64,000 bases of DNA from Patescibacteria group bacterium UBA5272. Lineage in GTDB: Bacteria > Patescibacteriota > Minisyncoccia > Phycocordibacterales > UBA5272. The translations under genes and the position numbers were made by a program. The DNA is taken from the NCBI GenBank assembly GCA_002408565.1, contig DHTA01000005.1, positions 108,049-172,048 of the forward strand, given 5' to 3'. This document shows positions 9,106 through 45,307 of this stretch, piece by piece; positions within the stretch are counted from its first letter, which is position 1; each line of letters begins with the position of its first letter. Under the pieces are notes generated by a model. The model was given only the letters and a program-made list of their open reading frames with translations, did no database searches and was not told the origin of the DNA.

Positions 9106-10516
9106 GGAAAAAAATCCAGCCAGACACAAAGATAACTCTTCTCGTTTTTCGGAGAGAGAAGAGATTATTTCTAGAGACGAAGAAGTTTCTAGAAGAAAAA
9201 AAGAATTTGGAGATGTTGAGTATACCAGAGAAGGCAGACCAATGATTAAAGCTTCCTCTCATTTTGATGTCAAACCAGCAAATTATAGAAGAGAGAGATC
9301 GGGAGAAGAGTTTGATGTTTTAAAAAGAAGTGAATTTTTCAATAATACTAGTCAAAGAAATTTTGATGAAGACAAACTTAAAGAGTTTAAACAAAAAAGA
9401 AATAAAAAGAAAACTGAAAGGAGGGCTTTTGGTATAATTTTTCTTATTTTAATTGTGGGAGGTTTAGCCGCTTGGACTTTCTTATTTAATAGCGTCAAAC
9501 TTTATGTCAATCCAAAATATGAAGATATAGAGCTCACTGGAAGTTTTTTGGTTTTTAAGGATGACATAGTGGTAAATTATGCCAGCTCAACCTTAACCAA
9601 AACTGTCTTAAAATCTGAGCCAAAAGAAGTCAATCAAAAAGCTGCTGGAGAATTGACCATTTACAACAATTATTCTGAAGCCCCTCAAGTTTTGATTACT
9701 AATACTAGATTTCAAACTCCAGACGGAAAGATTTTCAGGATTGGTGAAAGTGTGACCGTGCCTGGGAAAAAGGGGACGACTCCCGGATCTGTTAAGGTGA
9801 AAGTTTCAGCTGATGCTTATGGGGCAGAATATAATATTTCTGCTACCGAATTTACTATTCCTGGTTTTAAAGGTACAGCTAGATTTGATGGCTTTTATGC
9901 AAAGTCCACCGAGCCTATGACTGGCGGAGTTTCAGGAATTGTACAAATTGTTTCTCCAGATGATATAGCCAAGGCTAAACTAGAGCTTTCTTCTTCTATT
10001 AAATCAAACATAATCGCGGAGGCTGAGAAAATCAAAAGAGAAAATTATGTGACTTTAGTTAAAGCTCCTTTAATCACTTACACTGACAATCAAGAAGATC
10101 TCATGACTACTGAAAAAACTTCTTATGAATTGACTGGCTCAGGAATTATTCTTTCTATACGAGAAGAAGTTTTAGCAAAAATGTTAGCTCAACATGCTTT
10201 AGGAGATTCTTACAATGAGTTGGAAAGTGTTCGTTTAGATAATGAAGAATATTTAATCTTTTCTCTAGATGAAAAGACAGACTTGGCAGCTGATATTATT
10301 AAAATTGATATCACTGGAAGAGCGAGAATCGTTTGGACTTATGATGTTGAAAATATTAAAGCTTCTTTGGTAGGTCAAAGGTTGACTACTTTAAATGAAG
10401 TTCTAGCAAATTATAGTTCAGCTATTACTGATAGCTCATACAACGCTTCTCCTTCTTGGATTAAAAAGTTTCCAACTTCTATAGAAAGAATTAGACTTAT
10501 TGAAGAAATAAGGTAA
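9065..10516 (+). CDS. Hypothetical membrane-anchored protein (start ambiguous: 9008 or 9065)
   Basis: Basic Arg/Ser/Glu-rich N-terminal region, a single TM (FGIIFLILIVGGLAAWTFLF), then a roughly 330-aa extracytoplasmic domain. No family recognised. Confidence 0.5.
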   Translation: MRDIRRPYRNSRSEEKNPARHKDNSSRFSEREEIISRDEEVSRRKKEFGDVEYTREGRPMIKASSHFDVKPANYRRERSGEEFDVLKRSEFFNNTSQRNFDEDKLKEFKQKRNKKKTERRAFGIIFLILIVGGLAAWTFLFNSVKLYVNPKYEDIELTGSFLVFKDDIVVNYASSTLTKTVLKSEPKEVNQKAAGELTIYNNYSEAPQVLITNTRFQTPDGKIFRIGESVTVPGKKGTTPGSVKVKVSADAYGAEYNISATEFTIPGFKGTARFDGFYAKSTEPMTGGVSGIVQIVSPDDIAKAKLELSSSIKSNIIAEAEKIKRENYVTLVKAPLITYTDNQEDLMTTEKTSYELTGSGIILSIREEVLAKMLAQHALGDSYNELESVRLDNEEYLIFSLDEKTDLAADIIKIDITGRARIVWTYDVENIKASLVGQRLTTLNEVLANYSSAITDSSYNASPSWIKKFPTSIERIRLIEEIR

Positions 10517-10530
10517 AATAGGTATTAATT

Positions 10531-10788
10531 ATGAATAAAGAAAATAAAAATATAGAAGATATAGAAGAGTTCGAAGACGAAGATGTTTTGGAAGTCAAAG
10601 AGGGACGGGTTATAGAAGCTTTGCCGGCAGCTCTTTTCAGAGTAAAATTTAATAGTGATGGTAAGGAGTTGATTTGTTTTTTGAAAGGTAAAATTAAAAT
10701 CTTTAAAATTAAGATTTTGGTAGGGGATAAGGTCTTGGTCGAGATCGATCCGTATGGAGGAAGAGGTAGAATTATAAGAAGGCTCTAA
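10531..10788 (+). CDS. infA: Translation initiation factor IF-1, with a roughly 20-aa acidic N-terminal extension (an internal TTG alternative start is possible)
   Basis: KEGRVIEALPAALFRVKFNSDGKELICFLKGKIK...ILVGDKVLVEIDPYGGRGRIIRR matches IF-1 S1-like OB-fold motifs. Confidence 0.85.
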   Translation: MNKENKNIEDIEEFEDEDVLEVKEGRVIEALPAALFRVKFNSDGKELICFLKGKIKIFKIKILVGDKVLVEIDPYGGRGRIIRRL

Positions 10789-10884
10789 AAGCTTTAGAGA
10801 TATAGCTAGAAAGTTTGCAATTTTTTATTAATTATAGTATACTTTCTCTCACAAACTAAATACTAGTTTTTTATTTTTTTGCTT

Positions 10885-10998
10885 ATGAAAGTAAGATCAT
10901 CTGTTAAAAAGTTTTGCGGAAATTGTAAAATGATAAAGAGGAATGGCGACCTCCGTGTTATTTGTACTAATCCAAAACATAAGCAAGTACAAGGATAA
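10885..10998 (+). CDS. rpmJ: 50S ribosomal protein L36
   Basis: Translated by hand to [37 protein letters not shown]. This closely matches E. coli L36 (C-x2-C-x12-C-x4-H). It is too short for the ORF track. Confidence 0.85.
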
Positions 10999-11014
10999 TT
11001 TATTATTAAACATT

Positions 11015-11395
11015 ATGCGTATTGCAGGTATTACAATTCCAGAAGACAAGAGATTAGAGGTGGCTCTGACTGTGGTTCACGGTATCGGTCGCCCAAGAGC
11101 TAAGACTATTTTAAATAGTCTTAATATTGATTCTGCTAAAAAGGTTCCAGATCTTACAGCTGATGAAGAAAAAGATGTGAGACGTGAAGTGGAAGCTTTT
11201 AAAATCGAAGGAGACTTGAGAAGAGAAAAACAAATCAATATTAAAAGGCTCAAAGATTTAAAATGTTATCGTGGCGTCAGACATACTCGCGGTTTGCCAG
11301 TCAGAGGACAAAGAACCAAAACCAATAGTCGCACAGTAAGAGGCAATCAAAGAAAGACTATGGGCTCTGGTAGAAGAAAAGTCGAAAAGACCTAG
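11015..11395 (+). CDS. rpsM: 30S ribosomal protein S13
   Basis: MRIAGITIPEDKRLEVALTVVHGIGRPRAKTIL... is the S13 signature. The start is trimmed from the track ORF, which overlaps rpmJ. Confidence 0.9.
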   Translation: MRIAGITIPEDKRLEVALTVVHGIGRPRAKTILNSLNIDSAKKVPDLTADEEKDVRREVEAFKIEGDLRREKQINIKRLKDLKCYRGVRHTRGLPVRGQRTKTNSRTVRGNQRKTMGSGRRKVEKT

Positions 11396-11419
11396 AAATA
11401 TAATTATTATTAAAAAAAT

Positions 11420-11854
11420 ATGGGAAAGAAACGTGTAGTTAAAAAAAGTGGTTCAGGATTAGATCATGCTCTTAAAAACAGAGCTCTTTCTAAGTCCGTC
11501 AAAAGAAAACTCTCAGAAGGTATTCTTTATGTTGAATCTACTTACAACAATACAAAATTAACTCTGACAGATTTGTCTGGTAATGTAATTATTTGGTCCA
11601 CTTCTGGTTCTCTTGGATTTAAAGGAGCCAAAAAAGGTACCCCTTATGCCGCTGGAAAAATTGCTGAAGTGATTGGAGAAAAAGCTTCTCTAGCTGGAGT
11701 GAAAGAGGTAAAAGTTATAGTTAACGGTGTCGGTTCAGGAAGAGAGGCGGCTATTAGATCTTTTGCTGCTTTCGGAATTGATTTAACTTCTATCGAAGAT
11801 AAGACTCCTGTTCCTCACAACGGTCCAAAACCAAAGAAACCAAGAAGAATTTAA
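11420..11854 (+). CDS. rpsK: 30S ribosomal protein S11
   Basis: GILYVESTYNNTKLTLTDLSGNVIIWSTSGSLGFKGAKKGTPYAAG is the S11 core. Confidence 0.9.
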   Translation: MGKKRVVKKSGSGLDHALKNRALSKSVKRKLSEGILYVESTYNNTKLTLTDLSGNVIIWSTSGSLGFKGAKKGTPYAAGKIAEVIGEKASLAGVKEVKVIVNGVGSGREAAIRSFAAFGIDLTSIEDKTPVPHNGPKPKKPRRI

Positions 11855-11872
11855 TTTTAATATTATAAAAAT

Positions 11873-12505
11873 ATGATGGATAAAAAATGTAAAATTTGTA
11901 GAAGAGCCGGTGAAAAACTTTTTCTAAAAGGGGAAAGATGTTTTACTCCTAAATGTGCTATGAACACAAGAGCTTATCCTCCTGGAAAACTTGCTTCTGA
12001 AAAGAAACGTAGATCTCCAATTTCTGAATATGGTATTCAAATGAGAGAGAAACAAAAAATCAAAAATATCTACGGCGTTTCTGAAAAACAATTTGTAGCT
12101 TATGTCAAAAATGCAGAGACTTCAGCTGTAAACACAAAAGTTATGCCTGCTCTTGGTGCTTATATCAATCTAGAAACTCGTTTAGACAATGTGGTCTTTA
12201 GAATGGGTCTAGCTAAAAGTCGTCCTTTGGCGAGACAAATTGTCTCTCATGGACACATATTGGTCAACGGGAAAAAGATTAATATCCCTTCTCACAGAGT
12301 AAGAGTGGGAGATGTGGTGGCAATCAGAGAGGGTTCAAAAAGTAGCAAGCTTTTCAGTGAGGCTACAAACAAATTGAAAGATGTTTCCTCACCAGATTGG
12401 TTGGCTTTAGACGCTACCAAACTTGAGGCTAAAGTAAATTCTTTCCCTAAAGAAATTGAAGGAGGATTTGACTTTGCGAAGGTTCTCGAATTTTACAGCA
12501 AATAG
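11873..12505 (+). CDS. rpsD: 30S ribosomal protein S4
   Basis: N-terminal zinc-ribbon-like CKICRRAGEKLFLKGERCFTPKC and an S4 domain. Confidence 0.9.
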   Translation: MMDKKCKICRRAGEKLFLKGERCFTPKCAMNTRAYPPGKLASEKKRRSPISEYGIQMREKQKIKNIYGVSEKQFVAYVKNAETSAVNTKVMPALGAYINLETRLDNVVFRMGLAKSRPLARQIVSHGHILVNGKKINIPSHRVRVGDVVAIREGSKSSKLFSEATNKLKDVSSPDWLALDATKLEAKVNSFPKEIEGGFDFAKVLEFYSK

Positions 12506-12525
12506 TAAGAATATCGGTTTTCCCC

Positions 12526-12555
12526 TTGATTTTCTTAGGCTTTTTGTGTTATAAT
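12526..12555 (+). promoter_or_regulatory. Putative internal sigma-70-type promoter for rpoA (TTGATT, 18 nt, TGtTATAAT)
   Basis: -35 TTGATT at 12526-12531 and extended -10 TGTTATAAT at 12547-12555, in the rpsD-rpoA spacer. Confidence 0.4.
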
Positions 12556-12639
12556 AACCTCCGTCAATTTTTGTCGGTTAATTTATTAATTTTATTAATT
12601 ATTAAGAACAATAGGTCAGAAAAATAATAAGATAAAACT

Positions 12640-13608
12640 ATGCATTCACAAAATATCAATCTCCCATCCAAGCCAAAAATTATCAAAGAAGAAGATAATA
12701 AAGGTATTTACGAAATCGATGGATTATATCCTGGATATGGATATACTTTAGGCAATTCTATTAGAAGAATTATAATTTCTTCTATTCCTGGAGCAGCTAT
12801 CACTTCTCTTTCTATCGAAGGAGTCAAACATGAATTTTCCACCATTGAAGGCATCAAAGAAGATGTCATTTCTCTTATTTTAAATTTAAAAGAGATTAAC
12901 TTTACTTTACACTCAGATGAGCCTCAAAAGATTTCTCTCAAAGTTAAGGGGCCAAAAGTTGTCACTGCAGCAGACTTGGATGTCAATTCTGAAGTGGAAG
13001 TTTTAAATAAAGATGCATATCTTTGCGAAATTACTGGTAAAGTCACTTTAGAATTTGAAATGACTGTAGAAAAAGGTATTGGTTATATTTCTAAAGAGCA
13101 AGTGGAAAAAGAAAGAACAGCTATTGGAGATATTGCTTTGGATGCAGCTTTTACACCTGTAAAAAGAGCGAGTTATGAAGTAGAAAATATGCGTGTTGGA
13201 GATAGGACAGATCACAATAGATTAAGACTTTTTATTGAAACAGATGGTACAATTTCTCCTAAAGAAGTTTTAGAATATTCTATTTCTCTTATGATCAAAC
13301 AGCTTCAAGCTGTAGTTGGTTTTAAGGAAAATGTCATTGAAGCAGAAGACGGTATGATGTCAGACAATATGGTAGAAGGAGCTCAAGATACTGCAGAGTC
13401 TCCATCTAAAATCAAAATTGAAGAGTTACAATTTTCTACTCGTACCGAAAACGCTCTCTTGGCTGGAGGGGTAAAGACTTTATCTGGCCTTTTGAAAAAA
13501 TCAGAGTCTGATTTGAAGGCTCTTGGAGGGCTTGGTGACAAAGCAGTAGAAGAAATAAGGGAGCTCTTAGAAGGAAAAGGTCTTTATCTTAAACAAGAGA
13601 AGAAATAA
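12640..13608 (+). CDS. rpoA: DNA-directed RNA polymerase subunit alpha
   Basis: EIDGLYPGYGYTLGNSIRRIIISSIPGAAITSLSIEGVKHEFSTIEG is the canonical RpoA N-terminal domain. Confidence 0.9.
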   Translation: MHSQNINLPSKPKIIKEEDNKGIYEIDGLYPGYGYTLGNSIRRIIISSIPGAAITSLSIEGVKHEFSTIEGIKEDVISLILNLKEINFTLHSDEPQKISLKVKGPKVVTAADLDVNSEVEVLNKDAYLCEITGKVTLEFEMTVEKGIGYISKEQVEKERTAIGDIALDAAFTPVKRASYEVENMRVGDRTDHNRLRLFIETDGTISPKEVLEYSISLMIKQLQAVVGFKENVIEAEDGMMSDNMVEGAQDTAESPSKIKIEELQFSTRTENALLAGGVKTLSGLLKKSESDLKALGGLGDKAVEEIRELLEGKGLYLKQEKK

Positions 13609-13654
13609 GAGTTGCAAAAATACTTAAAAAAGTGTATAAAATATAGACAAAAAC

Positions 13655-14008
13655 ATGAAGCATCATAAAAATTTTAGAAAATTTGGACGAGAGAAAAATC
13701 AGAGAAAGGCTTTTATTAAAGGTCTAGCTGTGAACTTGATTCGTCACGAAAAAATAGAGACAACTGAAGCTAGAGCCAAAGAGATTAGACCTTTTGTGGA
13801 GAGATTGGTCACTTTAGCTAAAGAAGATACTGTAGCAAGAAGGAGATTAGTAGCTAGCAGAATTCTCAATCAAGAACCTGAAACTAAAAAACTTTTCACC
13901 GAGATTGCTCCAAAATATAAAGATGTGAATGGTGGATATTTAAGAATTACTAAATTAGGACAAAGAATTGGAGACGGTTCACCAATTGCTATAATTGAAT
14001 TTGTATAA
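13655..14008 (+). CDS. rplQ: 50S ribosomal protein L17
   Basis: RKFGREKNQRKAFIKGLAVNLIRHEKIETTEARAKEIRPFVERLVTLAK is the L17 signature. Confidence 0.9.
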   Translation: MKHHKNFRKFGREKNQRKAFIKGLAVNLIRHEKIETTEARAKEIRPFVERLVTLAKEDTVARRRLVASRILNQEPETKKLFTEIAPKYKDVNGGYLRITKLGQRIGDGSPIAIIEFV

Positions 14009-14012
14009 AAAT

Positions 14013-14378
14013 ATGACAACTCTAAAAGAAACAAAAGAATATACAATTGATGCGACAGGAAAATCTTTAGGAAGATTATCTTCTCAGGTAGCAGCTCTTT
14101 TAAATGCTAAAAATTCTACTAGTTTTGCAAAAAATGTAGTGGCTCCAGTAAAGGTTAAAGTTATTAATGCTTCAAAAGTAAAAGTGACAGGTAAAAAAAT
14201 GAATCAAAGTGTTCACAAGACTTATTCTGGTTATCCAGGAGGACAAAGAGTGAAAACTTTAGCTACAGTTGTAGAGAAAAAAGGATATAAAGAAATTGTG
14301 AGACATGCTGTGGAAGGAATGCTTCCTAAAAATAAATTACAAGACAAGAGAATGAAAAATCTTTTAATAGAAGAATAA
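14013..14378 (+). CDS. rplM: 50S ribosomal protein L13
   Basis: KTYSGYPGGQRV and the L13 family pattern. ATG at 14013, immediately after the rplQ stop. The track's 13995 start is TTG inside rplQ. Confidence 0.9.
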   Translation: MTTLKETKEYTIDATGKSLGRLSSQVAALLNAKNSTSFAKNVVAPVKVKVINASKVKVTGKKMNQSVHKTYSGYPGGQRVKTLATVVEKKGYKEIVRHAVEGMLPKNKLQDKRMKNLLIEE

Positions 14379-14396
14379 GTTTAATATTATAAAATT

Positions 14397-14795
14397 ATGA
14401 GTAAAGAAAAATACATTGAAGGCATAGGAAGAAGAAAAACTGCGACAGCTAGAGTTCGTATAACTCCATCAGCTAAAGCTTCTTTTATCGTAAACGATAA
14501 AGATGTTCACGATTATTTTCCAACTTCAGAACTTCTCACTGTAGTAAATTCGGCTTTTGCTAAAGCTGATATTCCAAATAAATATTCTATTACCGTCAAA
14601 GTTTCAGGTTCTGGTATTCATTCTCAAGCCGAAGCTGTTAGACATGGTATCACTAGATGTTTGGTAGAAGAAGATAAAGAGCTTAGAACTACTCTCAAAA
14701 AACTTGGTTTCCTCAAAAGAGATCCTAGAAAGAAAGAAAGAAAGAAATTCGGTCTTAAAAAAGCTCGTAAAGGTCCAACTTGGTCAAAAAGATAG
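14397..14795 (+). CDS. rpsI: 30S ribosomal protein S9
   Basis: GRRKTATARVRITP... with a C-terminal KKARKGPTWSKR tail characteristic of S9. Confidence 0.9.
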   Translation: MSKEKYIEGIGRRKTATARVRITPSAKASFIVNDKDVHDYFPTSELLTVVNSAFAKADIPNKYSITVKVSGSGIHSQAEAVRHGITRCLVEEDKELRTTLKKLGFLKRDPRKKERKKFGLKKARKGPTWSKR

Positions 14796-35347: not shown

Positions 35348-36166
35348 ATGTCTATGACTCAAATTTTAAAAAATATAAAATCTAAACCTTATTTTTCTTC
35401 TAATGATTTTGTTCTGTATTTAGGAGATAGTATTGAATATTTAAATCAATTACCTGAAAATAGCGTAGACATGATTTTTGCTGATCCACCTTATAATTTA
35501 TCTAATGGGGGTTTTTCTTTGCATGCTGGGAAAAGGGTTCCTGTGAATAAGGGAGACTGGGATAAAAGTAAAGGCTTTCAAAATGATTATGAATTTCATT
35601 TAACTTGGTTACGGGCTTGTTATAGAGTTTTAAAACCAGACGGAACGATCTGGGTTTCTGGGACATATCACTCTATATATCAATGCGGGTCAGCTATGCA
35701 ACAAATTGGTTTTCATATTTTAAACGACATTTCTTGGTTTAAACCAAATGCATCTCCTAATTTATCTTGTAGATTTTTTACAGCTTCACACGAAACTTTA
35801 ATTTGGGCTAGAAAAGATAAAAAAGGAAAACATTATTTTGATTATAAGTTAATGAAAGAGGGAGATTGGAAGGAGGATTTTATCAAAAAACCCAATTTAC
35901 AAATGAGATCAGTTTGGTCAATTTATCCTCCTAAAACTTATGAAAAAGTCCATGGAAAACATCCTACCCAAAAACCTTTAGAGTTATTAAGAAGGTGTAT
36001 TCTGGCTAGTACAAAAGATGGGGATATTATAATAGATCCGTTTACTGGCAGTTCTACTACTGGGATTTCTTCTAAAATTATAGGAAAAAGGAAATTTGTT
36101 GGTTTTGATCTTGAAAAAAAGTTTTTGGATGTTAGTATTAAAAGGTATAAAGATTTATTGAAATAA
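35348..36166 (+). CDS. DNA methyltransferase, beta-class amino-MTase (N6-adenine or N4-cytosine; PF01555)
   Basis: Motif IV DPPY (MIFADPPYNL) precedes the C-terminal motif I region HPTQKPLELLRRCI...IIDPFTGSSTTG. The order IV then I indicates the beta class. DPPY favours N6-adenine. Confidence 0.8.
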   Translation: MSMTQILKNIKSKPYFSSNDFVLYLGDSIEYLNQLPENSVDMIFADPPYNLSNGGFSLHAGKRVPVNKGDWDKSKGFQNDYEFHLTWLRACYRVLKPDGTIWVSGTYHSIYQCGSAMQQIGFHILNDISWFKPNASPNLSCRFFTASHETLIWARKDKKGKHYFDYKLMKEGDWKEDFIKKPNLQMRSVWSIYPPKTYEKVHGKHPTQKPLELLRRCILASTKDGDIIIDPFTGSSTTGISSKIIGKRKFVGFDLEKKFLDVSIKRYKDLLK

Positions 36167-36171
36167 AAAAT

Positions 36172-36696
36172 ATGAAAAAAGGTGGAGTGGGTGGTGGAAA
36201 TACATTAACGGGTTTAAATTTTGAAAGAGAAAGAGATTTTTTATCTGTTTTAGATAAATCTAAAGGATATTCTATAAAAGATAATATAATATATTTCAAA
36301 AATAAAGAGGTTGCTAGAAACTATAGAAAAAATAGTTTATATAAATACTTAGAATCAAGAGGGGTAGATTATAAAAATCATATAAGTAAAAAATTATTAC
36401 CTGATGACGCTATTTATGTTATTAAAAATAACACTCTATTTATTATAGAAATGAAATTCCAAACTGTTGCTGGATCTGTAGATGAAAAATTACAAACTTG
36501 CGATTTCAAACTAAAACAATATAAAAAATTAATGTCTCCTTTGAATATAGATGTAGAATATATTTATATATTAAATGACTGGTTTAGAAAGTTTGAATAT
36601 AAAGACGTTTTAGATTATATAATTTCTGTAGGATGTGATTATTATTTTGAATATCTGCCACTTAAAAGACTGGGTTTGCCAGTTCCTAAACAATAA
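36172..36696 (+). CDS. Putative Type II restriction endonuclease (small PD-(D/E)xK fold)
   Basis: Immediately downstream of the MTase (5-nt gap). LLPDDAIYVIKNNTLFIIEMKFQ gives PD-x13-E-x-K. Confidence 0.5.
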   Translation: MKKGGVGGGNTLTGLNFERERDFLSVLDKSKGYSIKDNIIYFKNKEVARNYRKNSLYKYLESRGVDYKNHISKKLLPDDAIYVIKNNTLFIIEMKFQTVAGSVDEKLQTCDFKLKQYKKLMSPLNIDVEYIYILNDWFRKFEYKDVLDYIISVGCDYYFEYLPLKRLGLPVPKQ

Positions 36697-36744
36697 AACA
36701 AAAGAGGCGTATTCACACCTCTTTTGTTTTTTTAGTAATTAAAA

Positions 36745-36972
36745 TTATTCATTATGACATGATGTGCAGTAATAGCACCCATCCACGTTGTCAGCAATCT
36801 CCTTAGAGAAATTTTCTTTTACATAATTGATTGCGGTATGACAAGAAGTAAAAATTCCTAAAAATTTTTGATTTTCTGATTTTGGTAGAAGAGAACAACT
36901 AGAATTATGTACTTCGTAATTTTCTCCACTTTTAGAATCTTGTTTGTTTAAATTTAAAATATATTTATTCAT
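36745..36972 (-). CDS. Small Cys/His-rich protein (75 aa), putative zinc-binding, Ada-like N-terminal motif
   Basis: YEVHNSSCSLLPKSENQKFLGIFTSCH ... DGCYYCTSCHNE gives C-x3.. and C-x2-C-x2-CH clusters. Convergent with the R-M genes. Confidence 0.4.
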   Translation of the reverse strand: MNKYILNLNKQDSKSGENYEVHNSSCSLLPKSENQKFLGIFTSCHTAINYVKENFSKEIADNVDGCYYCTSCHNE

Positions 36973-37294
36973 ATTTTTTATTTACCATTAATAATAAGTT
37001 TTTGTTCTTTATCCAACTAGAAATTTTACAGCTGGGTATATTCTTTATCTCTATCGATTCTTGCTTTAATAAATCTTTTCTCTGAATCTCAAGAACTATA
37101 AATTAATATTTTTTACTGAATTTAAACCCTTAAGAACTATTAAATTATACAAAAATTCAAACCCTGTCACAAATATTATGGTGTTTTAATTGTGTGGATA
37201 GTGTGGAAAAGTAAAAACATTCATACATTCATATTTGCCAATAGATATAAACACTTGTTTATTCATGATCTTTATAAAATGCTATAATCTACCT

Positions 37295-40200
37295 ATGAAT
37301 AATCTAAATCAAACCTTCGAAACCCGCTATAAAAACCTAAATGAAAAGCAAAAAGAAGCTGTAGATACGATTGATGGCCCGGTTTTAGTAGTGGCTGGAC
37401 CAGGGAGTGGAAAGACAGAACTTCTCTCACTTCGTGCAGCAAATATTTTGAAAGAAACTCAGGCAACTCCTGGAAATATATTACTCCTCACATTTACTGA
37501 AAATGGAGCTAAAAATATGCGTGAGAGAATAGTCTCTCTAATTGGTGAAGCTGGATATAGGATAGCGATTTATACTTTCCACGCTTTCGCGAGCGACATT
37601 ATGAATAAATATGCCGAATTCTTTTTTGATGGAGCAAATTTTAAACCAGCCACTGAAGTGGAAAAGATAAATATTATTGAAAAAATCCTAGAGGCACTTC
37701 CAAGAGAAAATCCTCTGACCAGTCTTCATCCTGAAAAAGGCTACGCCTATCTCTATGATATTATTGCCCTCATCTCCGCTCTCAAAAAAGGAAATCTCAC
37801 CGGTGAAGAATTTAAAGAAAAAATTAAAAGAAATGAGAGTGAATATAAAGAGATAAATGAAAAAGTCAGCGAATACTTTTTAGAGATCGCAGGTAAAAGA
37901 AAATTTGAATTACTTCGCGATGTATATTTACAGATTTATAATGAATTAAATTTAATGGGGCAAAATGACAACAATGTGGCTAAGTTTTTGGCGGATATTT
38001 TATCTTTAGAGATAAAGCACGCTGAAGAAGTTGGTAAAGGGAACAATTTAACCAAATGGAAAGACCAATATTTTACCAAAAGCGAAGATGGCAGATTTAT
38101 TTTAAAAGATAGCCGCGAAGAAAAGATCAAGAAATGGATGGCTGTTGAAGATGTCTATGAGAAATACAACGCCAAAATGTATGAGGTTGGGCTATACGAC
38201 TTTGACGATATGATTTTTAAAGTTGGGCGCGAGCTTGAGAAAAATGAGGGACTAAGAAATGAGCTAGAAGAAAGATTCCAATATATTATGATTGACGAAT
38301 TCCAAGACACTTCGGACTCACAGTTTAATTTAGTTTTAAATCTAACTAAAAGTCTGGTAAATGAGGGAAGACCAAATGTTTTGGCTGTTGGAGACGATGA
38401 TCAGGCTATTTTCAAATTTCAAGGAGCTGAATTGGACAATATTACTAAATTTATAAAAAGTTACAAAGAAGTTAAACTTGTCACCTTAGATAAAAACTAT
38501 CGCTCTACTCAAAATATTTTGGATGAAGCGAGAAAGCTTATTACAAAAATTGGAGACAGACTAGAAACTAGGTACCCAGAAATAAATAAAGAAATCAAAG
38601 CGGAAAATGAAAAATTAATCAAGGCTCACAAAGGAGAAATCGTAGAGAAAAATTTTGACAATATTCATAGCGAGTTTAATTTTGTAGCTAAAGAGATAGA
38701 ATCTTTAATTAAAAAGGGAGTAAATCCAGAGGAAATAAGCGTCATCTCACGAACCCATAAAAATTTGAAAAACTTAGCTTCTATTTTTAATGAATACAAA
38801 ATCCCTTATAGCTATGAAAAAGAAGAGAACGTTTTTGATAAAGAACCGATTAGAGAAATAATTACTTTGGTAGAATTTGCGGAAAGTGGACTTGAAAATA
38901 TTAAAGAGGAATTGCTTCCAGAAATTTTGTCTTATAAATTCTGGGGTCTAGATAGAATAGAGGTTTGGAAAATAGGGGAGGTGGTCAGACAGGGAGAGAT
39001 TAGTTTAGGAGAGTTTGGAGAGAGAGTTTATATTAAACCATCTTGGCTTAAAGTAATGTTGGAAAGTCAGAATGAAAAAGTAAAAGGTGTTGCAAAATTT
39101 TTAATAGAACTAGTTAGCGATGCAAAATCTTTACCACTCCTTCACTTGATAGATAAAATAGTCGGTACTCGTGAATGGGAAGTGAATCGTGAATACGACG
39201 ATGGGGAAGAGGGAGAAAAAGAAATTAATTTTATTTCTCCATTTAAAGGATATTATTTTGGAAAGGAAAATTTTGATCACAATAAACCAGAATACCTAGA
39301 CTTCCTTTTTGCGCTTCGCACATTTATTGGTTCTCTTCGCGAATACAAAGGTGGTGATACCCTGTATGCTAGAGATTTGAAAGATTTTGTAGCTATTTAT
39401 GAAAATAATAAAAACTTAACCCTTTCTACCATTTCTCCTTTTGCGACTAGTGAAAAAGCGGTAGTACTTCAGACGGCCCACAAAAGTAAAGGACTTGAAT
39501 ATGAATATATTTTTATTTTAAATAGTGATGAAAATGAGTGGAATGGTAGGAAAGGTGTAAATAAAATTGGACTTCCAATCAATTTGCCACTCTTGCCGTC
39601 AGATGATGATATTTCGGACAGGGTGAGACTTTATTATGTAGCTATGACTAGAGCTAAACATACTCTTTATATCACTAATAATAAGGAAAAGTTTTCTATG
39701 CTTTTAACGGAAAAAGAAGAGAAAGAGAAAAACGAAATAGATGACGACTTGATTAAGACTTTATATCCGGTAGAGAAAAAGATATTTTTGGAAGATGAAA
39801 AAGCCCTTTTAAAAAGAGTTTTAGAGGATTATAAAATGCCGGTTACTCATATTATAAATTTCTTAAATATTGGAAAAATTGGTCCAGAAAAATTCTTGGA
39901 GCAAAATTTACTTCGTTTTCCACAAGCTATGAGTCCATCTAGTGTCTATGGAACAGCTATACACGAGGCTATTCAAAACTACTATCTTTATAAAAAGAAA
40001 TATGAAAAGAATCCAGATCTTGACAGAGTAATCTCTTTTTTTAAGAACGCTTTAAATAGAGGAGCTCTTTCAAAGATAGAATACGAAAAATATTATAATT
40101 CCGGAGTGAAAAATTTGGAAATATTTATTCAAAATTTAGAGAAGCAAAAAGAGTTAGGGCAGATTGAAGTGGAAGTAAACTTTGCTAACGAAGGAGTGCA

Positions 40201-40675
40201 GATAAAAGATGTGCCAGCAACTGGAAAGATAGATAAATTAGTCTTGAATGGAAATTCTGCTGTGGTCACTGATTTTAAGACGGGAAAAAGTTTTAGAGAT
40301 TGGAATGATGGAGATAGCAATTATGACAAAATAAAATTGCATTTCTTTGAATATCAGCTGGCTTTTTATGCCCTACTTCTACGAAATTCCAGAACCTATG
40401 AAAGGGTTAATTTTGAAAAAGGAATTATAGAGTTTGTAGAAGCTGATTCAAAAAATAAAGTAAATATTTTGGAAATAAAAGATGGTGAGGAATTTGAGGT
40501 TATCATAGATAGGGTAGAGTCTTTGGCTAATGCTATTTACAAAAAGATAGTCGATTTAGATTTTCCAGATACTGCGAGATATAAACTGAAAAAAGATAGA
40601 GCGGAAGAAAAAGATGAAGTCACCCTGAGAGATATTATTCAATTTGAAGATGATTTATTAAGTGGTAATATATAA
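37295..40675 (+). CDS. AddA-like ATP-dependent helicase/nuclease (UvrD/PcrA-type SF1 helicase fused to a C-terminal RecB-family PD-(D/E)xK nuclease)
   Basis: Walker A VVAGPGSGKTE, UvrD motifs (MIDEFQDTS, VGDDDQAIFKFQGA, YRST) and the C-terminal nuclease motif GKIDKLV...VVTDFKTGKS. TATAAT at 37283-37288. The track's 37235 start is in-frame upstream junk. Confidence 0.8.
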   Translation: MNNLNQTFETRYKNLNEKQKEAVDTIDGPVLVVAGPGSGKTELLSLRAANILKETQATPGNILLLTFTENGAKNMRERIVSLIGEAGYRIAIYTFHAFASDIMNKYAEFFFDGANFKPATEVEKINIIEKILEALPRENPLTSLHPEKGYAYLYDIIALISALKKGNLTGEEFKEKIKRNESEYKEINEKVSEYFLEIAGKRKFELLRDVYLQIYNELNLMGQNDNNVAKFLADILSLEIKHAEEVGKGNNLTKWKDQYFTKSEDGRFILKDSREEKIKKWMAVEDVYEKYNAKMYEVGLYDFDDMIFKVGRELEKNEGLRNELEERFQYIMIDEFQDTSDSQFNLVLNLTKSLVNEGRPNVLAVGDDDQAIFKFQGAELDNITKFIKSYKEVKLVTLDKNYRSTQNILDEARKLITKIGDRLETRYPEINKEIKAENEKLIKAHKGEIVEKNFDNIHSEFNFVAKEIESLIKKGVNPEEISVISRTHKNLKNLASIFNEYKIPYSYEKEENVFDKEPIREIITLVEFAESGLENIKEELLPEILSYKFWGLDRIEVWKIGEVVRQGEISLGEFGERVYIKPSWLKVMLESQNEKVKGVAKFLIELVSDAKSLPLLHLIDKIVGTREWEVNREYDDGEEGEKEINFISPFKGYYFGKENFDHNKPEYLDFLFALRTFIGSLREYKGGDTLYARDLKDFVAIYENNKNLTLSTISPFATSEKAVVLQTAHKSKGLEYEYIFILNSDENEWNGRKGVNKIGLPINLPLLPSDDDISDRVRLYYVAMTRAKHTLYITNNKEKFSMLLTEKEEKEKNEIDDDLIKTLYPVEKKIFLEDEKALLKRVLEDYKMPVTHIINFLNIGKIGPEKFLEQNLLRFPQAMSPSSVYGTAIHEAIQNYYLYKKKYEKNPDLDRVISFFKNALNRGALSKIEYEKYYNSGVKNLEIFIQNLEKQKELGQIEVEVNFANEGVQIKDVPATGKIDKLVLNGNSAVVTDFKTGKSFRDWNDGDSNYDKIKLHFFEYQLAFYALLLRNSRTYERVNFEKGIIEFVEADSKNKVNILEIKDGEEFEVIIDRVESLANAIYKKIVDLDFPDTARYKLKKDRAEEKDEVTLRDIIQFEDDLLSGNI

Positions 40676-40677
40676 TT

Positions 40678-41556
40678 ATGGCTGATAAATATAATGCAGT
40701 TTGGCTCTCCCATTCATCTTTTAACGACTTTTTAAGTTGCCCTAAAGCTTATTATCTTAAAAATGTCTATAAAGACCCTAAAAGTAGAAATAAAATCTCT
40801 CTAATTTCTCCACACACCTCTCTTGGCTCAGCCGTTCATTTAACTATTGAAACTCTTTTAGATTTTCCTTCAGAAAAGAGGACAGAAAAACTAAATACTT
40901 TAGAAAAAGACTATGAAAAAATTTGGCAAGCTAATTTTCAAGGGAAAAGAGGTGGATTTTTGAGCGAAGAGGAAGAAAAAGATTTTTTTGAAAGAGGTTT
41001 AGCAATGATTAAAAATATCAAAGAAAATCCAAATTTTTTATTAAATAAAATTATAAAAAGAGAAAGTTATTATAAGGGAGATATTTTACCAAACTTTTTT
41101 ATTGATGACGAAGAAGAAATTTTGCTTTGTGGAGTACCAGACTGGGTAGAATATTTAGACGATGACACTTTGCACGTGATAGATTTTAAAACTGGAAAAA
41201 ATGAAGAAAGAGAAGATAGTTCTCAATTACCAATTTATGTTTTACTTTTAGAAAATTTACAAAAAAGAAAAGTCTCTCGGGCTAGCTATTGGTATTTGTC
41301 CAAAGATAAGAAAGCACAAGAAAAAGAAATCAACAGAGAAGAGATTGAAGACCTTAAAAATAAAATTGTTAAAACCGGAAAAGATATTAAAGATTTAAAA
41401 AATGAAGCCTTAAAAAAAGACTGGCGAGAAGTCTTTTTTTGTGGAAGAGGGGAGGAGGGTTGTATACATTGTAAAGATTATGAGAAAATAGTTTCTGGTG
41501 AAGCAGAATATGTCGGTAAAGATATTTACAATAAAGATGGTTATATTTTAAATTAA
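40678..41556 (+). CDS. Stand-alone RecB-family/Cas4-like PD-(D/E)xK nuclease with a 4-Cys cluster (AddB nuclease-domain-like)
   Basis: N-terminal Cys (FLSCPKAYYL), nuclease motifs (GVPDWVEY, HVIDFKTGKN) and a C-terminal CGRGEEGCIHC cluster: the 1+3 Cys Fe-S arrangement seen in AddB/Cas4. A 2-nt gap after the helicase suggests translational coupling. Confidence 0.65.
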   Translation: MADKYNAVWLSHSSFNDFLSCPKAYYLKNVYKDPKSRNKISLISPHTSLGSAVHLTIETLLDFPSEKRTEKLNTLEKDYEKIWQANFQGKRGGFLSEEEEKDFFERGLAMIKNIKENPNFLLNKIIKRESYYKGDILPNFFIDDEEEILLCGVPDWVEYLDDDTLHVIDFKTGKNEEREDSSQLPIYVLLLENLQKRKVSRASYWYLSKDKKAQEKEINREEIEDLKNKIVKTGKDIKDLKNEALKKDWREVFFCGRGEEGCIHCKDYEKIVSGEAEYVGKDIYNKDGYILN

Positions 41557-41557
41557 C

Positions 41558-43291
41558 TTAGTTTTTAATTTGTAAACGAAGAAGCTTGAGAGAATCGTAA
41601 TCTATTTTTATTTTTAAATCTTTATTTAATTTATCAAACTTAGTCTTTAGTCCAGAGTCTTCTGCTAAAACTTTTTTAATAGCTTTTAATTGAATATTAG
41701 TATATTTTTTCTCAATTTCTTTCCAAATATATTTCAAATCTTTTTCTTCTATTTCTCTCCCTTCAAATAATTCTTCAATATGACTAATAATAGTATTGGT
41801 TTTTAAGCTTCTCTTTTTAGCAATTTCTTTTGGCAAAAGTTTTTCTTTGAGAAAGTCTAAAGTCACTAAAGTGGTTTTAGTTTTTACAGGTTTTTCAAAA
41901 GTTTCTTTTTCTAGTTCGTGAGGAACTAAATCCCCATCAGAAGCCAAGATAAAATCTTCTTGTAATCTTTTGAGTTTATTTTCCATTTCTTTACTAGAAA
42001 AATATTTTTCTAAAGCTTGACTAGCTTTCTCGGATCTAGCTCGAAAAACTTTATCTTGCTTTGTAACCCCAGGATTAATTTTTAAAGCTTTATCATGAAT
42101 ACCCAGAAGACAAATATTTTCAAATTTCCTTACTCTAGATAAGGCTACGTAACCCATGCCTGTACCAAAAGCTTTAGAAAGGTCAATTTCGGCAGCGTCT
42201 AAAGTCATACCTTGAGATTTGTGCACTGTAATAGCCCAAGCGTAGCGAAGAGGCAATTGTGAAATTTCAGCCAAGACTTTGCCGTCATCATTTACATATT
42301 GCCAATTTTCTCGAGAGACCGAAATCTTTTTTCCATCAAAAGTTTTAACTATAGGCATATTGGAGACATCAAAGTCTATAATTTCTCCCAAAGTTCCATT
42401 TTGATATTCGCGATTTTTATCATTTTTTACAAAAATAACTTTAGCTCCTTTTTTGAGATTAATACTTTCTGGAGCCAGACAGTTAGCTTTCAAAATTTCT
42501 ACAAAGTTTTTCTTCCCGTTGCAAATCACTTCATAAGAAAATTCTGGAGAGTCAATTTTTAAATCACAATATTTTTCTAAATTAATAGTATCTACATCAA
42601 TATTATGAGTGTAAAGTTTTAAAGTTTCAGTTTTTGTTTGAGAAGAAAGGTTTTTGTTTAATTTTTGAAGAATTTTATTTGTGTCTCTTTCAAAACGAAT
42701 ATCGTTTAAAATTTTTGTTAAAGTTTCACCTTCTTTTTGGCGATAATTTTCTTCTAAATAACAAATTATCGGATTTAATTCTTTCCAAGCTAGAGAGTTA
42801 TAAGCAAATTCCTGATCTTCGTCCGGATAATCTTCCATCTTTCCATATCTTTTAACCACTGGTGGAAGCTGAAAAAAATCTCCACAGAAAACTATTTGTA
42901 TTCCACCAAAAGGTAAATCATTTTTTCTAAAAGTTTTAAAAAGAGTATTAATCATATCAAGACGATTGGCGTGAAGCATGGAAATTTCGTCGATAATTAA
43001 AACTTTAACATTTGCATAACGTTTATAAAGTTTTTCATTTTGTTCAAGTTTATCTAAAGTATATTTATCTAATTTTTCATAGACACCAATTCCGCTCCAA
43101 GAATGAATAGTTTGTCCTCCAATATGAGTGGCTGCGATACCAGTAGAAGCTGTAATAGCTGGAGGAATAGAATGAGACTTTAAATATTCAATATATTTAT
43201 TTAAAACAAAAGTTTTACCAGTGCCAGCAGCTCCAGTCAAAAATACCGAATGTCCCATTTTCATTATATCCAAAGCTTCTTTTTGAGTCAT
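41558..43291 (-). CDS. Pif1/RecD-like SF1B DNA helicase with a C-terminal extension
   Basis: Walker A LTGAAGTGKTF, Walker B LIIDEISM, Q-motif and RecD/Pif1 family motifs (VHKSQGMTLD). About 130 extra C-terminal residues. Confidence 0.7.
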   Translation of the reverse strand: MTQKEALDIMKMGHSVFLTGAAGTGKTFVLNKYIEYLKSHSIPPAITASTGIAATHIGGQTIHSWSGIGVYEKLDKYTLDKLEQNEKLYKRYANVKVLIIDEISMLHANRLDMINTLFKTFRKNDLPFGGIQIVFCGDFFQLPPVVKRYGKMEDYPDEDQEFAYNSLAWKELNPIICYLEENYRQKEGETLTKILNDIRFERDTNKILQKLNKNLSSQTKTETLKLYTHNIDVDTINLEKYCDLKIDSPEFSYEVICNGKKNFVEILKANCLAPESINLKKGAKVIFVKNDKNREYQNGTLGEIIDFDVSNMPIVKTFDGKKISVSRENWQYVNDDGKVLAEISQLPLRYAWAITVHKSQGMTLDAAEIDLSKAFGTGMGYVALSRVRKFENICLLGIHDKALKINPGVTKQDKVFRARSEKASQALEKYFSSKEMENKLKRLQEDFILASDGDLVPHELEKETFEKPVKTKTTLVTLDFLKEKLLPKEIAKKRSLKTNTIISHIEELFEGREIEEKDLKYIWKEIEKKYTNIQLKAIKKVLAEDSGLKTKFDKLNKDLKIKIDYDSLKLLRLQIKN

Positions 43292-44734: not shown

Positions 44735-45307
44735 ATGGAAAAAGTAAAATACGGATTAAAAATTTATACTGATTTTAAAGAGAGTGAAATAAAAGAAAGG
44801 ACTCGAATTATTAATATAGACGAGGCTAAACATCTTGAGATCAAAGAAGAGAATTTTGAAAATGATTTTCTTTCACACATTATTATAAATCTAAATGTAG
44901 CAGAAGCTAGTGTGAAATTTATTGGCAGATATAGAGCGGAAAAATCTTTATGTGATATTTCTTGCGTGATTAATCATAAAGCCGATTACACCAAATCCGA
45001 AATCGATATTAAAGGCATTGCAGAAGCAGAGGGAAAAATAATTTCTCGTTCCAATATTTTTGTAGATGAAGATGTGAAAGGTGCAGAAGGGGAAGAAAAA
45101 GTAAAATTTATTTTTGTAGTTAAAGAAGGTGGAGAAGCAGGGGAGATAGACGCTATTCCAAATCTAGATATCAATAGTCACGATGTAAAAGTCTCTCACG
45201 CTCTTTCTATCTCAAAAATAAAAGAAACTGATATTTGGTATGCCAATCTTCATTCTTTTGACGAAAAAGAGTCCGAAGTCTTTTTTAAGGAAAACTTTTT
45301 AAATTAA
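44735..45307 (+). CDS. sufD: SufD-like protein (short, beta-helix core only)
   Basis: Parallels the SufB C-terminal core (VKVSHALSISKIKETDIWYANLHSFDE). 190 aa. Adjacent to sufB. Confidence 0.55.
   Translation: MEKVKYGLKIYTDFKESEIKERTRIINIDEAKHLEIKEENFENDFLSHIIINLNVAEASVKFIGRYRAEKSLCDISCVINHKADYTKSEIDIKGIAEAEGKIISRSNIFVDEDVKGAEGEEKVKFIFVVKEGGEAGEIDAIPNLDINSHDVKVSHALSISKIKETDIWYANLHSFDEKESEVFFKENFLN

Follow-up and report, generated by a model that had tools for sequence, protein, structure and literature searches.

A candidate AddAB/AdnAB-like pair of a helicase-nuclease and a free-standing Cas4-family nuclease in Paceibacteria

In AddAB of the Bacillus subtilis type one active motor is combined with two nucleases. 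AddA joins a superfamily 1A (SF1A) helicase motor to a C-terminal RecB nuclease without an iron-sulfur (Fe-S) cluster, and AddB carries at its C-terminus an Fe-S-type nuclease module with a 1+3 cysteine signature, in addition to an inactivated helicase and Chi-scanning scaffold of ~800 amino acids (aa). In the mycobacterial AdnAB a motor domain is found on both subunits, AdnB being the subunit whose motor and nuclease work on the 3′ strand. Both the AdnA and the AddB nuclease contain Fe4S4, and once the DNA is unwound it is the 5′ strand that they cleave (PMC12094033). Here we describe two neighbouring genes, A and B, which encode a helicase-nuclease and a small free-standing nuclease on contig DHTA01000005.1 of the Patescibacteria group bacterium UBA5272. 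The analysed stretch of this contig, called the window in the following, is 64 kb long, and positions given without a locus label refer to it. We tentatively propose that A and B share the end resection of DNA double-strand breaks (DSBs) in an AddAB/AdnAB-like division of labour that dispenses with the second helicase-like scaffold. We consider this the best explanation of the data, with a confidence that falls somewhat short of even.

Similar parts occur in other described systems. ACE1, an Fe4S4 endonuclease for single-stranded DNA (ssDNA) (PMC12094033), is free-standing and is defined by its operon and its complex with a long-A prokaryotic Argonaute (pAgo). In Dna2 and in the bacterial enzyme Bad an Fe-S nuclease and a superfamily 1B (SF1B) helicase are united in one polypeptide (PMC7430649). 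Fusions of UvrD with Cas4 have been documented in defence contexts, an operon of unfused UvrD and Cas4-like genes with a proposed role in repair was described in Clostridiales, and solo Cas4 genes were found to be common in CPR (candidate phyla radiation) genomes (Hudaiberdiev et al. 2017, PMC5704561). The parts of the locus described here are thus of known kinds. In the open-access literature we found no paper in which a helicase-nuclease of CPR bacteria, together with an Fe-S nuclease from a separate gene, is presented as AddAB/AdnAB-like, and nothing relevant on AddAB, RecBCD or DSB repair in CPR/Patescibacteria.

First we consider the helicase-nuclease A, for which the initial annotation had claimed the complete AddA-type architecture. 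The Pfam domains of A agree with this claim: UvrD-helicase (5e-59) and UvrD_C (1e-25) were recognized together with PDDEXK_1 (1.8e-11, residues 867-1082). The motor is of the SF1A UvrD/PcrA type and extends over approximately residues 1-830. The nuclease domain holds the previously noted GxID...DFKTGK motif in the form GKIDK...VTDFKTGK...YQLAFY. In an alignment of 25 homologues, which were 43-86% identical with the window protein, the motor motifs Walker A, DEFQD, NYRST and VALTRAK as well as the nuclease residues H890, D980, D993, K995, Q1021 and Y1025 were invariant. The ATG at position 37295 matches the near-invariant M1 of this alignment, and a longer version of A, given by a TTG open reading frame (ORF) from 37235, is unnecessary. 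None of the 1126 residues of A is a cysteine, and the 0-8 cysteines of its homologues are not conserved, from which it follows that the nuclease belongs to the Fe-S-free RecB/AddA type.

The AlphaFold2 model of A (predicted local distance difference test score, pLDDT, of 83) gave AddA as the best full-length Foldseek match (4cej_A, E 5e-32), followed by RecB and the AdnA and AdnB chains of AdnAB. UvrD and PcrA covered the motor part alone. For the nuclease domain of A no relative in the PDB was detectable by sequence. The NCBIfam models for AddA yielded 92.4 bits (TIGR02785, cut-off 707.65) and 101.1 bits (TIGR02784, cut-off 860.75), and the model for PcrA yielded 258.9 bits, likewise under its cut-off. 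Since these scores lie far under the curated cut-offs, A has the AddA architecture, yet it is not an AddA equivalog. Its family consists of proteins of ~1100 aa with a common architecture which, if annotated at all, are called PcrA/UvrD or ATP-dependent DNA helicase.

Gene B starts 2 nt downstream of A and encodes 292 aa, as stated in the initial annotation. Its AlphaFold model (pLDDT 92) comprises one compact nuclease fold and no helicase-like part, such that the earlier statement that B lacks the inactivated helicase scaffold of AddB holds. PDDEXK_1 (PF12705) matched residues 10-255 at 1.1e-23 (85 bits), much more strongly than Cas_Cas4 (PF01930), for which the 25.8 bits obtained were slightly over the cut-off of 22.7. 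The scores with the Cas4 model TIGR00372 (43 bits, cut-off 65) and the AddB model TIGR02786 (19.4 bits, cut-off 486.5) stayed under the cut-offs. Invariant in 25 homologues were the cysteines C21, C255, C262 and C265 as well as the catalytic set D155, D169, K171, Q183 and Y187. The cysteines correspond to the 1+3 set of a predicted Fe-S "iron staple" of the AddB type.

In a fold comparison B scored highest with ACE1, the cyanobacterial Argonaute-associated Cas4-family endonuclease (17.3), followed by the nuclease domains of AdnA (15.9) and Dna2 (15.2), a putative exonuclease of Eubacterium rectale (3l0a, 13.1), RecE (11.6), Cas4 (11.4), AddA (9.4), AddB (8.6), and RecB and EXO5 (8.0 each). Foldseek likewise ranked ACE1 at the top and AdnA next. 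ACE1 was also the only PDB relative of B detectable by sequence. It is of similar size (about 270-290 aa) and free-standing like B, but just 16-18% identical to it, and in our locus B is flanked not by an Argonaute gene but by A and a Pif1-like helicase gene, in a housekeeping context. The equation of B with the nuclease module of AddB and Cas4 can therefore be kept for the 1+3 cysteines and the PDDEXK_1 domain but not for the fold, which is nearer to ACE1, AdnA and Dna2, nor for the curated AddB and Cas4 models. From its sequence we classify B as a Cas4-family nuclease with a predicted Fe-S cluster that is not AddB.

B is one member of a large family. A word-indexed search gave 582 clusters at 90% identity, a scan in which each GTDB species was represented by one genome gave at least 586 species-level loci, and at 50% identity there were 84 representatives with E <1e-30. 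The members are uniformly ~270-300 aa long. Among the best 150 representatives none had a helicase-like extension or a helicase fusion. A reading of B as a truncated or degenerate AddB was rejected, given a large family with ~280 aa throughout and catalytic and cysteine residues that are all invariant. The only long relatives among these 150 representatives were P0361, P0372, P0373 and P0384 with 1297, 1047, 769 and 610 aa, in which Pfam found 5, 4, 3 and 2 tandem PDDEXK_1 (Cas4-like) domains, respectively. To our knowledge, no function has been described for tandem nuclease arrays of this kind. A further member, P0242 (378 aa), has a GIY-YIG domain at approximately residues 165-232 that overlaps the start of the main PDDEXK_1 match and looks like a homing-endonuclease-type insertion.

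Where the source gave an organism name, homologues of A and B came almost exclusively from Patescibacteria (CPR) assemblies, with labels including Paceibacteria, Parcubacteria, Nomurabacteria, Taylorbacteria and Kaiserbacteria. Among species-level genomes the closest was "Candidatus Elulimicrobiales bacterium CA_14" (86% identity for A, 84% for B). A and B are vertically inherited chromosomal genes of a Paceibacteria (CPR) bacterium. They are not a peculiarity of a single genome, both belonging to large conserved Patescibacteria families.

A full-length protein similar to AddB or RecC was not found in the window, in which A is the sole ORF above 800 aa, and apart from A and B a search of it revealed neither UvrD-like nor Cas4-like genes. 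The only other ORF near Argonaute size, 798 aa long, encodes a TPR protein ~17 kb from B; no Argonaute-sized ORF was found near B. From the ORFs in ~0.9 Mb around B homologues, eight large ones (907-1480 aa) were tested, and none was AddB- or RecC-like. Pairs of large ORFs near B in the loci L030 and L061, considered as canonical AddAB, turned out to be RpoB and RpoC.

Features of the locus with their positions in the window
Feature	Positions	Strand	Basis
N6_N4 methyltransferase	35348-36166		Pfam
174-aa putative restriction enzyme	36172-36696		PDDEXK_11 match below threshold (20.7 bits, cut-off 23.7)
AT-rich intergenic region 5′ of A	36973-37294	+	own promoter presumed, inferred only
Gene A, helicase-nuclease, 1126 aa	37295-40675	+	Pfam, NCBIfam, invariant motifs, AlphaFold2 model, Foldseek
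RecB/AddA-type nuclease domain of A (residues ~831-1126), lacking an Fe-S cluster	39785-40672	+	PDDEXK_1 at residues 867-1082
A-B junction: TAA, 2 nt, ATG; different frames	40673-40680	+	sequence
Gene B, free-standing Cas4-family PD-(D/E)xK nuclease, 292 aa, 1+3 Cys (Fe-S "iron staple") signature	40678-41556	+	
Pif1-like SF1B (5′-3′) helicase with C-terminal HTH_40, convergent with B	41558-43291	-	Pfam PIF1 2.7e-40, Pif1_2B_dom, HTH_40

The tight junction makes co-transcription and translational coupling of A and B likely in the window, and no terminator-like site was found between the two genes. A fusion or frameshift of A and B was rejected, since the two reading frames differ and the 150 representatives of B included no fused homologue. 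The arrangement in relatives was surveyed at 82 non-redundant loci around B with at most 10 kb of flank, 80 of them from the scan with one genome per GTDB species and 2 from contig look-ups. The A family was the most frequent neighbour of B (25 of 82 loci), every other family being found at 14 loci or fewer. When only the 51 loci whose upstream flank reaches 4 kb or more are counted, 19 have a full-length A upstream of B on the same strand. The gap between the genes was 2 nt in the window, 1 nt in L073, 83 nt in L005, 87 nt in L043 and 128 nt in L035, and these gaps of up to ~130 nt (the window and four surveyed loci) span at least two sublineages. The other gaps of the species survey measured 0.3-2.4 kb, and a metagenome contig had one of 5.2 kb. 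Furthermore, all three distant homologues of A that were inspected, with 41-43% identity, had a PDDEXK_1 gene of 255-300 aa 1.2-5.2 kb downstream. The tight arrangement is probably ancestral in the linked clade and was loosened repeatedly, which is compatible with a functional link but does not prove it. The overall pattern of linkage speaks against a heterodimer like AddAB that is obligate and co-expressed in stoichiometric amounts.

Between A and B relatives have 0-11 small unannotated ORFs (L085 9343-10506; L086 9313-11586; P0202 locus 9301-14511; L013-L078), and the interval looks like an insertion hot spot within an otherwise conserved gene order. A conserved ORF of ~102 aa stands there directly after A in L057 (6693-7001), L066 (6044-6352) and L071 (7654-7968), with a gap of 1-3 nt or an overlap of 4 nt. 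A homologue of it is found ~0.55 kb after A in L055 (4288-4671). This ORF could be a lineage-specific third component.

One explanation for these data is that A and B cooperate in DSB end resection. The domain content and the invariant catalytic and motor residues of both proteins favour such a cooperation, as do the structural matches of A to AddA and then to RecB and AdnA/AdnB. The best matches of B, the nucleases of ACE1, AdnA and Dna2, point in the same direction, the AdnA and AddB nucleases being those that cut the 5′ strand (PMC12094033). Further support comes from the complementarity of the two nucleases, A without conserved cysteine and B with four invariant ones, as in AddAB. The position of A as most frequent neighbour of B, the short gaps in several loci, the downstream PDDEXK_1 genes of the distant A homologues and the housekeeping setting also favour cooperation. 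This setting comprises genes for AlaRS, DnaK, RmuC, DnaB, CysRS, an S41 peptidase, ribosomal protein L9, SufB and SerRS as well as three tRNA genes in the window, the G+C content of which is ~31%.

If A and B cooperate, A would bind a DNA end, translocate in 3′→5′ direction and use its nuclease to nick the 3′ strand. B would take up the displaced 5′ strand by threading and cut it, as AdnA and AddB do, and would either be docked on A or act in trans. As an inactivated helicase domain like that in AddB/RecC is missing, Chi scanning in the manner of AddB is not expected. Compared to AddAB, the pair would thus retain one active motor and two nucleases but lack the AddB scaffold; compared to AdnAB it would lack the second motor, B having none. 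CPR bacteria would then process DNA breaks with an AddAB/AdnAB-like enzyme minus the whole second helicase-like subunit, and a Chi-scanning scaffold would be dispensable for resection with two nucleases. With ~1400 aa in total the pair would also provide a small, tractable system for the hand-over of the 5′ strand to an iron-sulfur nuclease. All this bears on recombination and DNA scavenging in episymbiotic bacteria with minimal genomes.

The main rival reading is that A and B are independent. B would then be a stand-alone ssDNA nuclease similar to Cas4, EXO5 or ACE1 that acts on flaps, gaps or incoming DNA, A would be a self-sufficient helicase-nuclease derived from UvrD/PcrA, and their adjacency would reflect inherited gene order. 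In this case we would deal with two ordinary conserved repair-type genes that are neighbours by chance. We regard independence as rather unlikely, but several observations count for it or against cooperation. By sequence the motor of A resembles PcrA/UvrD (259 bits) more than AddA (92-101 bits). B is present in at least 586 species-level genomes, solo Cas4 is already known to be common in CPR (PMC5704561), and of the 51 species with enough flank 32 are without a full-length A upstream of B. Such loci belong to other synteny classes, e.g. one with a peptidyl-prolyl isomerase, B and a histidine kinase. In a neighbour-joining tree of B all linkage with A fell into one large clade, which in addition keeps the order CysRS-S41-L9-HD-L27-...-A-...-B-...-TrmH-like. 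Given this block synteny across the clade, the adjacency of A and B is no better conserved than that of unrelated housekeeping neighbours. The interval between them can be as short as 1 nt or as long as 5.2 kb and is frequently interrupted by ORFs on the opposite strand, and even within the subclade of the window gaps of 2 nt, 83 nt and ~1.1 kb were found. In L065 A is encoded ~4 kb downstream of B and in the opposite orientation.

Independence is disfavoured, in turn, by the frequency with which A adjoins B, which no other family approaches, by the 1-2-nt gaps in separate sublineages, and by nuclease types that are exactly those joined in AddAB and AdnAB. Of the initially proposed AddAB-like pair the domain architectures, the complementary nucleases and the missing scaffold were confirmed, whereas the partnership itself is a candidate one, the linkage being found in 19 of 51 loci, confined to one clade and variable in spacing. 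In contrast to AddAB, gene linkage is not kept across relatives, and a complex of A and B is putative.

A further helicase gene lies next to B in the window. The Pif1-like gene had been mentioned as mere context; its identity was confirmed, but homologues recur near B at 12 of the 82 loci and in several branches of the B tree. At 8 loci the Pif1-like gene immediately adjoins B (5 times on the same strand, 3 times convergent), and the loci with Pif1 and B include L044 and L053, in which no A is present within 8 kb. Of the 70 loci in which the downstream flank reaches 2.5 kb or more, 8 have Pif1 within 1 kb of B. In the window 1 nt separates the stop codon of B from that of the Pif1-like gene (41556-41558), and in L032 (2656-2659) the two genes overlap by 4 nt. 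As there is no space for a terminator between them, the transcripts must overlap.

The Pif1-like helicase is thus a possible third player. Its 5′→3′ activity may drive the 5′ strand, and B together with Pif1 could form a split module similar to Dna2 and Bad, in which an Fe-S nuclease is likewise combined with an SF1B helicase (PMC7430649). In an extended form of the cooperation, A, B and the Pif1-like helicase would constitute a modular, "unbundled" bipolar end-resection machine of Paceibacteria that matches RecBCD, or AddAB together with Dna2, in function, with B as a free nuclease cartridge that docks on either motor and without the Chi-scanning domain of RecC/AddB. Such a machine would be a minimal DSB-processing solution for ultra-small genomes; we consider it an improbable extension. 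It is distinctly improbable that the Pif1-like helicase is the main partner of B in a split 5′-strand helicase-nuclease, with A as a separate or third activity. This idea has Bad as precedent as well as the loci in which Pif1 adjoins B, some of them with no A nearby. However, this linkage (about 12-15% of loci) is rarer than that with A, the gene is convergent in the window and its closest relatives and hence not co-transcribed with B, and among the 150 best representatives B is never fused to a helicase, unlike the nucleases of Dna2 and Bad.

In the initial annotation the neighbouring restriction-modification (R-M) genes, together with the Pif1 helicase, left the choice between repair and defence open. 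Of the R-M genes the methyltransferase was confirmed, and the match of the 174-aa enzyme stayed sub-threshold. The methyltransferase is common to the window and its closest relative L005 alone (93% identical), and the putative restriction enzyme was not found in L005. Being confined to the window and its closest relative, the R-M genes are an incidental neighbour, and the housekeeping setting speaks against defence. In PADLOC A matched GajB, and B matched Cas4, an Argonaute-associated Cas4-like nuclease and DruK; these matches reflect generic UvrD and Cas4 similarity. In Gabija GajB is adjacent to GajA, an OLD-family ATPase-TOPRIM nuclease, whereas among the flanking genes scanned against PADLOC there was no match to GajA. 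Neither pAgo nor cas genes were found near A and B, cas genes were absent from the recurrent neighbour families of the 82 loci, and no CRISPR array-like repeats were found within the window. Unlike CRISPR-associated Cas4, B is thus neither in a cas operon nor beside a CRISPR array.

The UvrD-Cas4-like fusions and operons (PMC5704561) also link a UvrD-family helicase with a pfam12705 nuclease. They differ in that A already holds its own Fe-S-free nuclease, such that B is an additional, second one, and in that the fusion family has the 1+3 cysteine set that A does not have. An anti-phage or anti-plasmid defence module, either like the UvrD-Cas4 fusions near R-M genes or Gabija-like, that would act together with the adjacent R-M genes, is therefore very improbable despite the R-M genes directly upstream, the PADLOC matches and the documented defence contexts of the fusions, as A lacks their Fe-S cysteines, the PADLOC matches are generic, and throughout a deep clade A and B are conserved in stable housekeeping surroundings, without the patchy distribution suggestive of horizontal gene transfer and the island contexts of defence genes.

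A defence-like context, unlike that of the window, is found in the Parcubacteria locus L082 (6245-12526). Here the genes upstream of B encode an Mrr restriction enzyme and what is left of a UvrD N-terminus (71 aa), and downstream of B there are an ORF of 208 aa and a UvrD-Cas4 fusion of 976 aa that carries a 1+3 cysteine set itself. L082 was rejected as an independent second origin of the A-B linkage, the 976-aa neighbour belonging to a family other than A.

Upstream of A, promoter-like matches were not more frequent than in shuffled sequence, and the same was found for the terminator scan. A hairpin with a 16-bp stem (36695-36730) lies directly 3′ of the R-M genes, and a cysteine-rich ORF of 75 aa (36745-36972, - strand) is placed between these genes and A. 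Further downstream in the window, directly after SufB, a 190-aa protein (44735-45307) consists of the SufBD core only and may be a minimal SufD-like partner.

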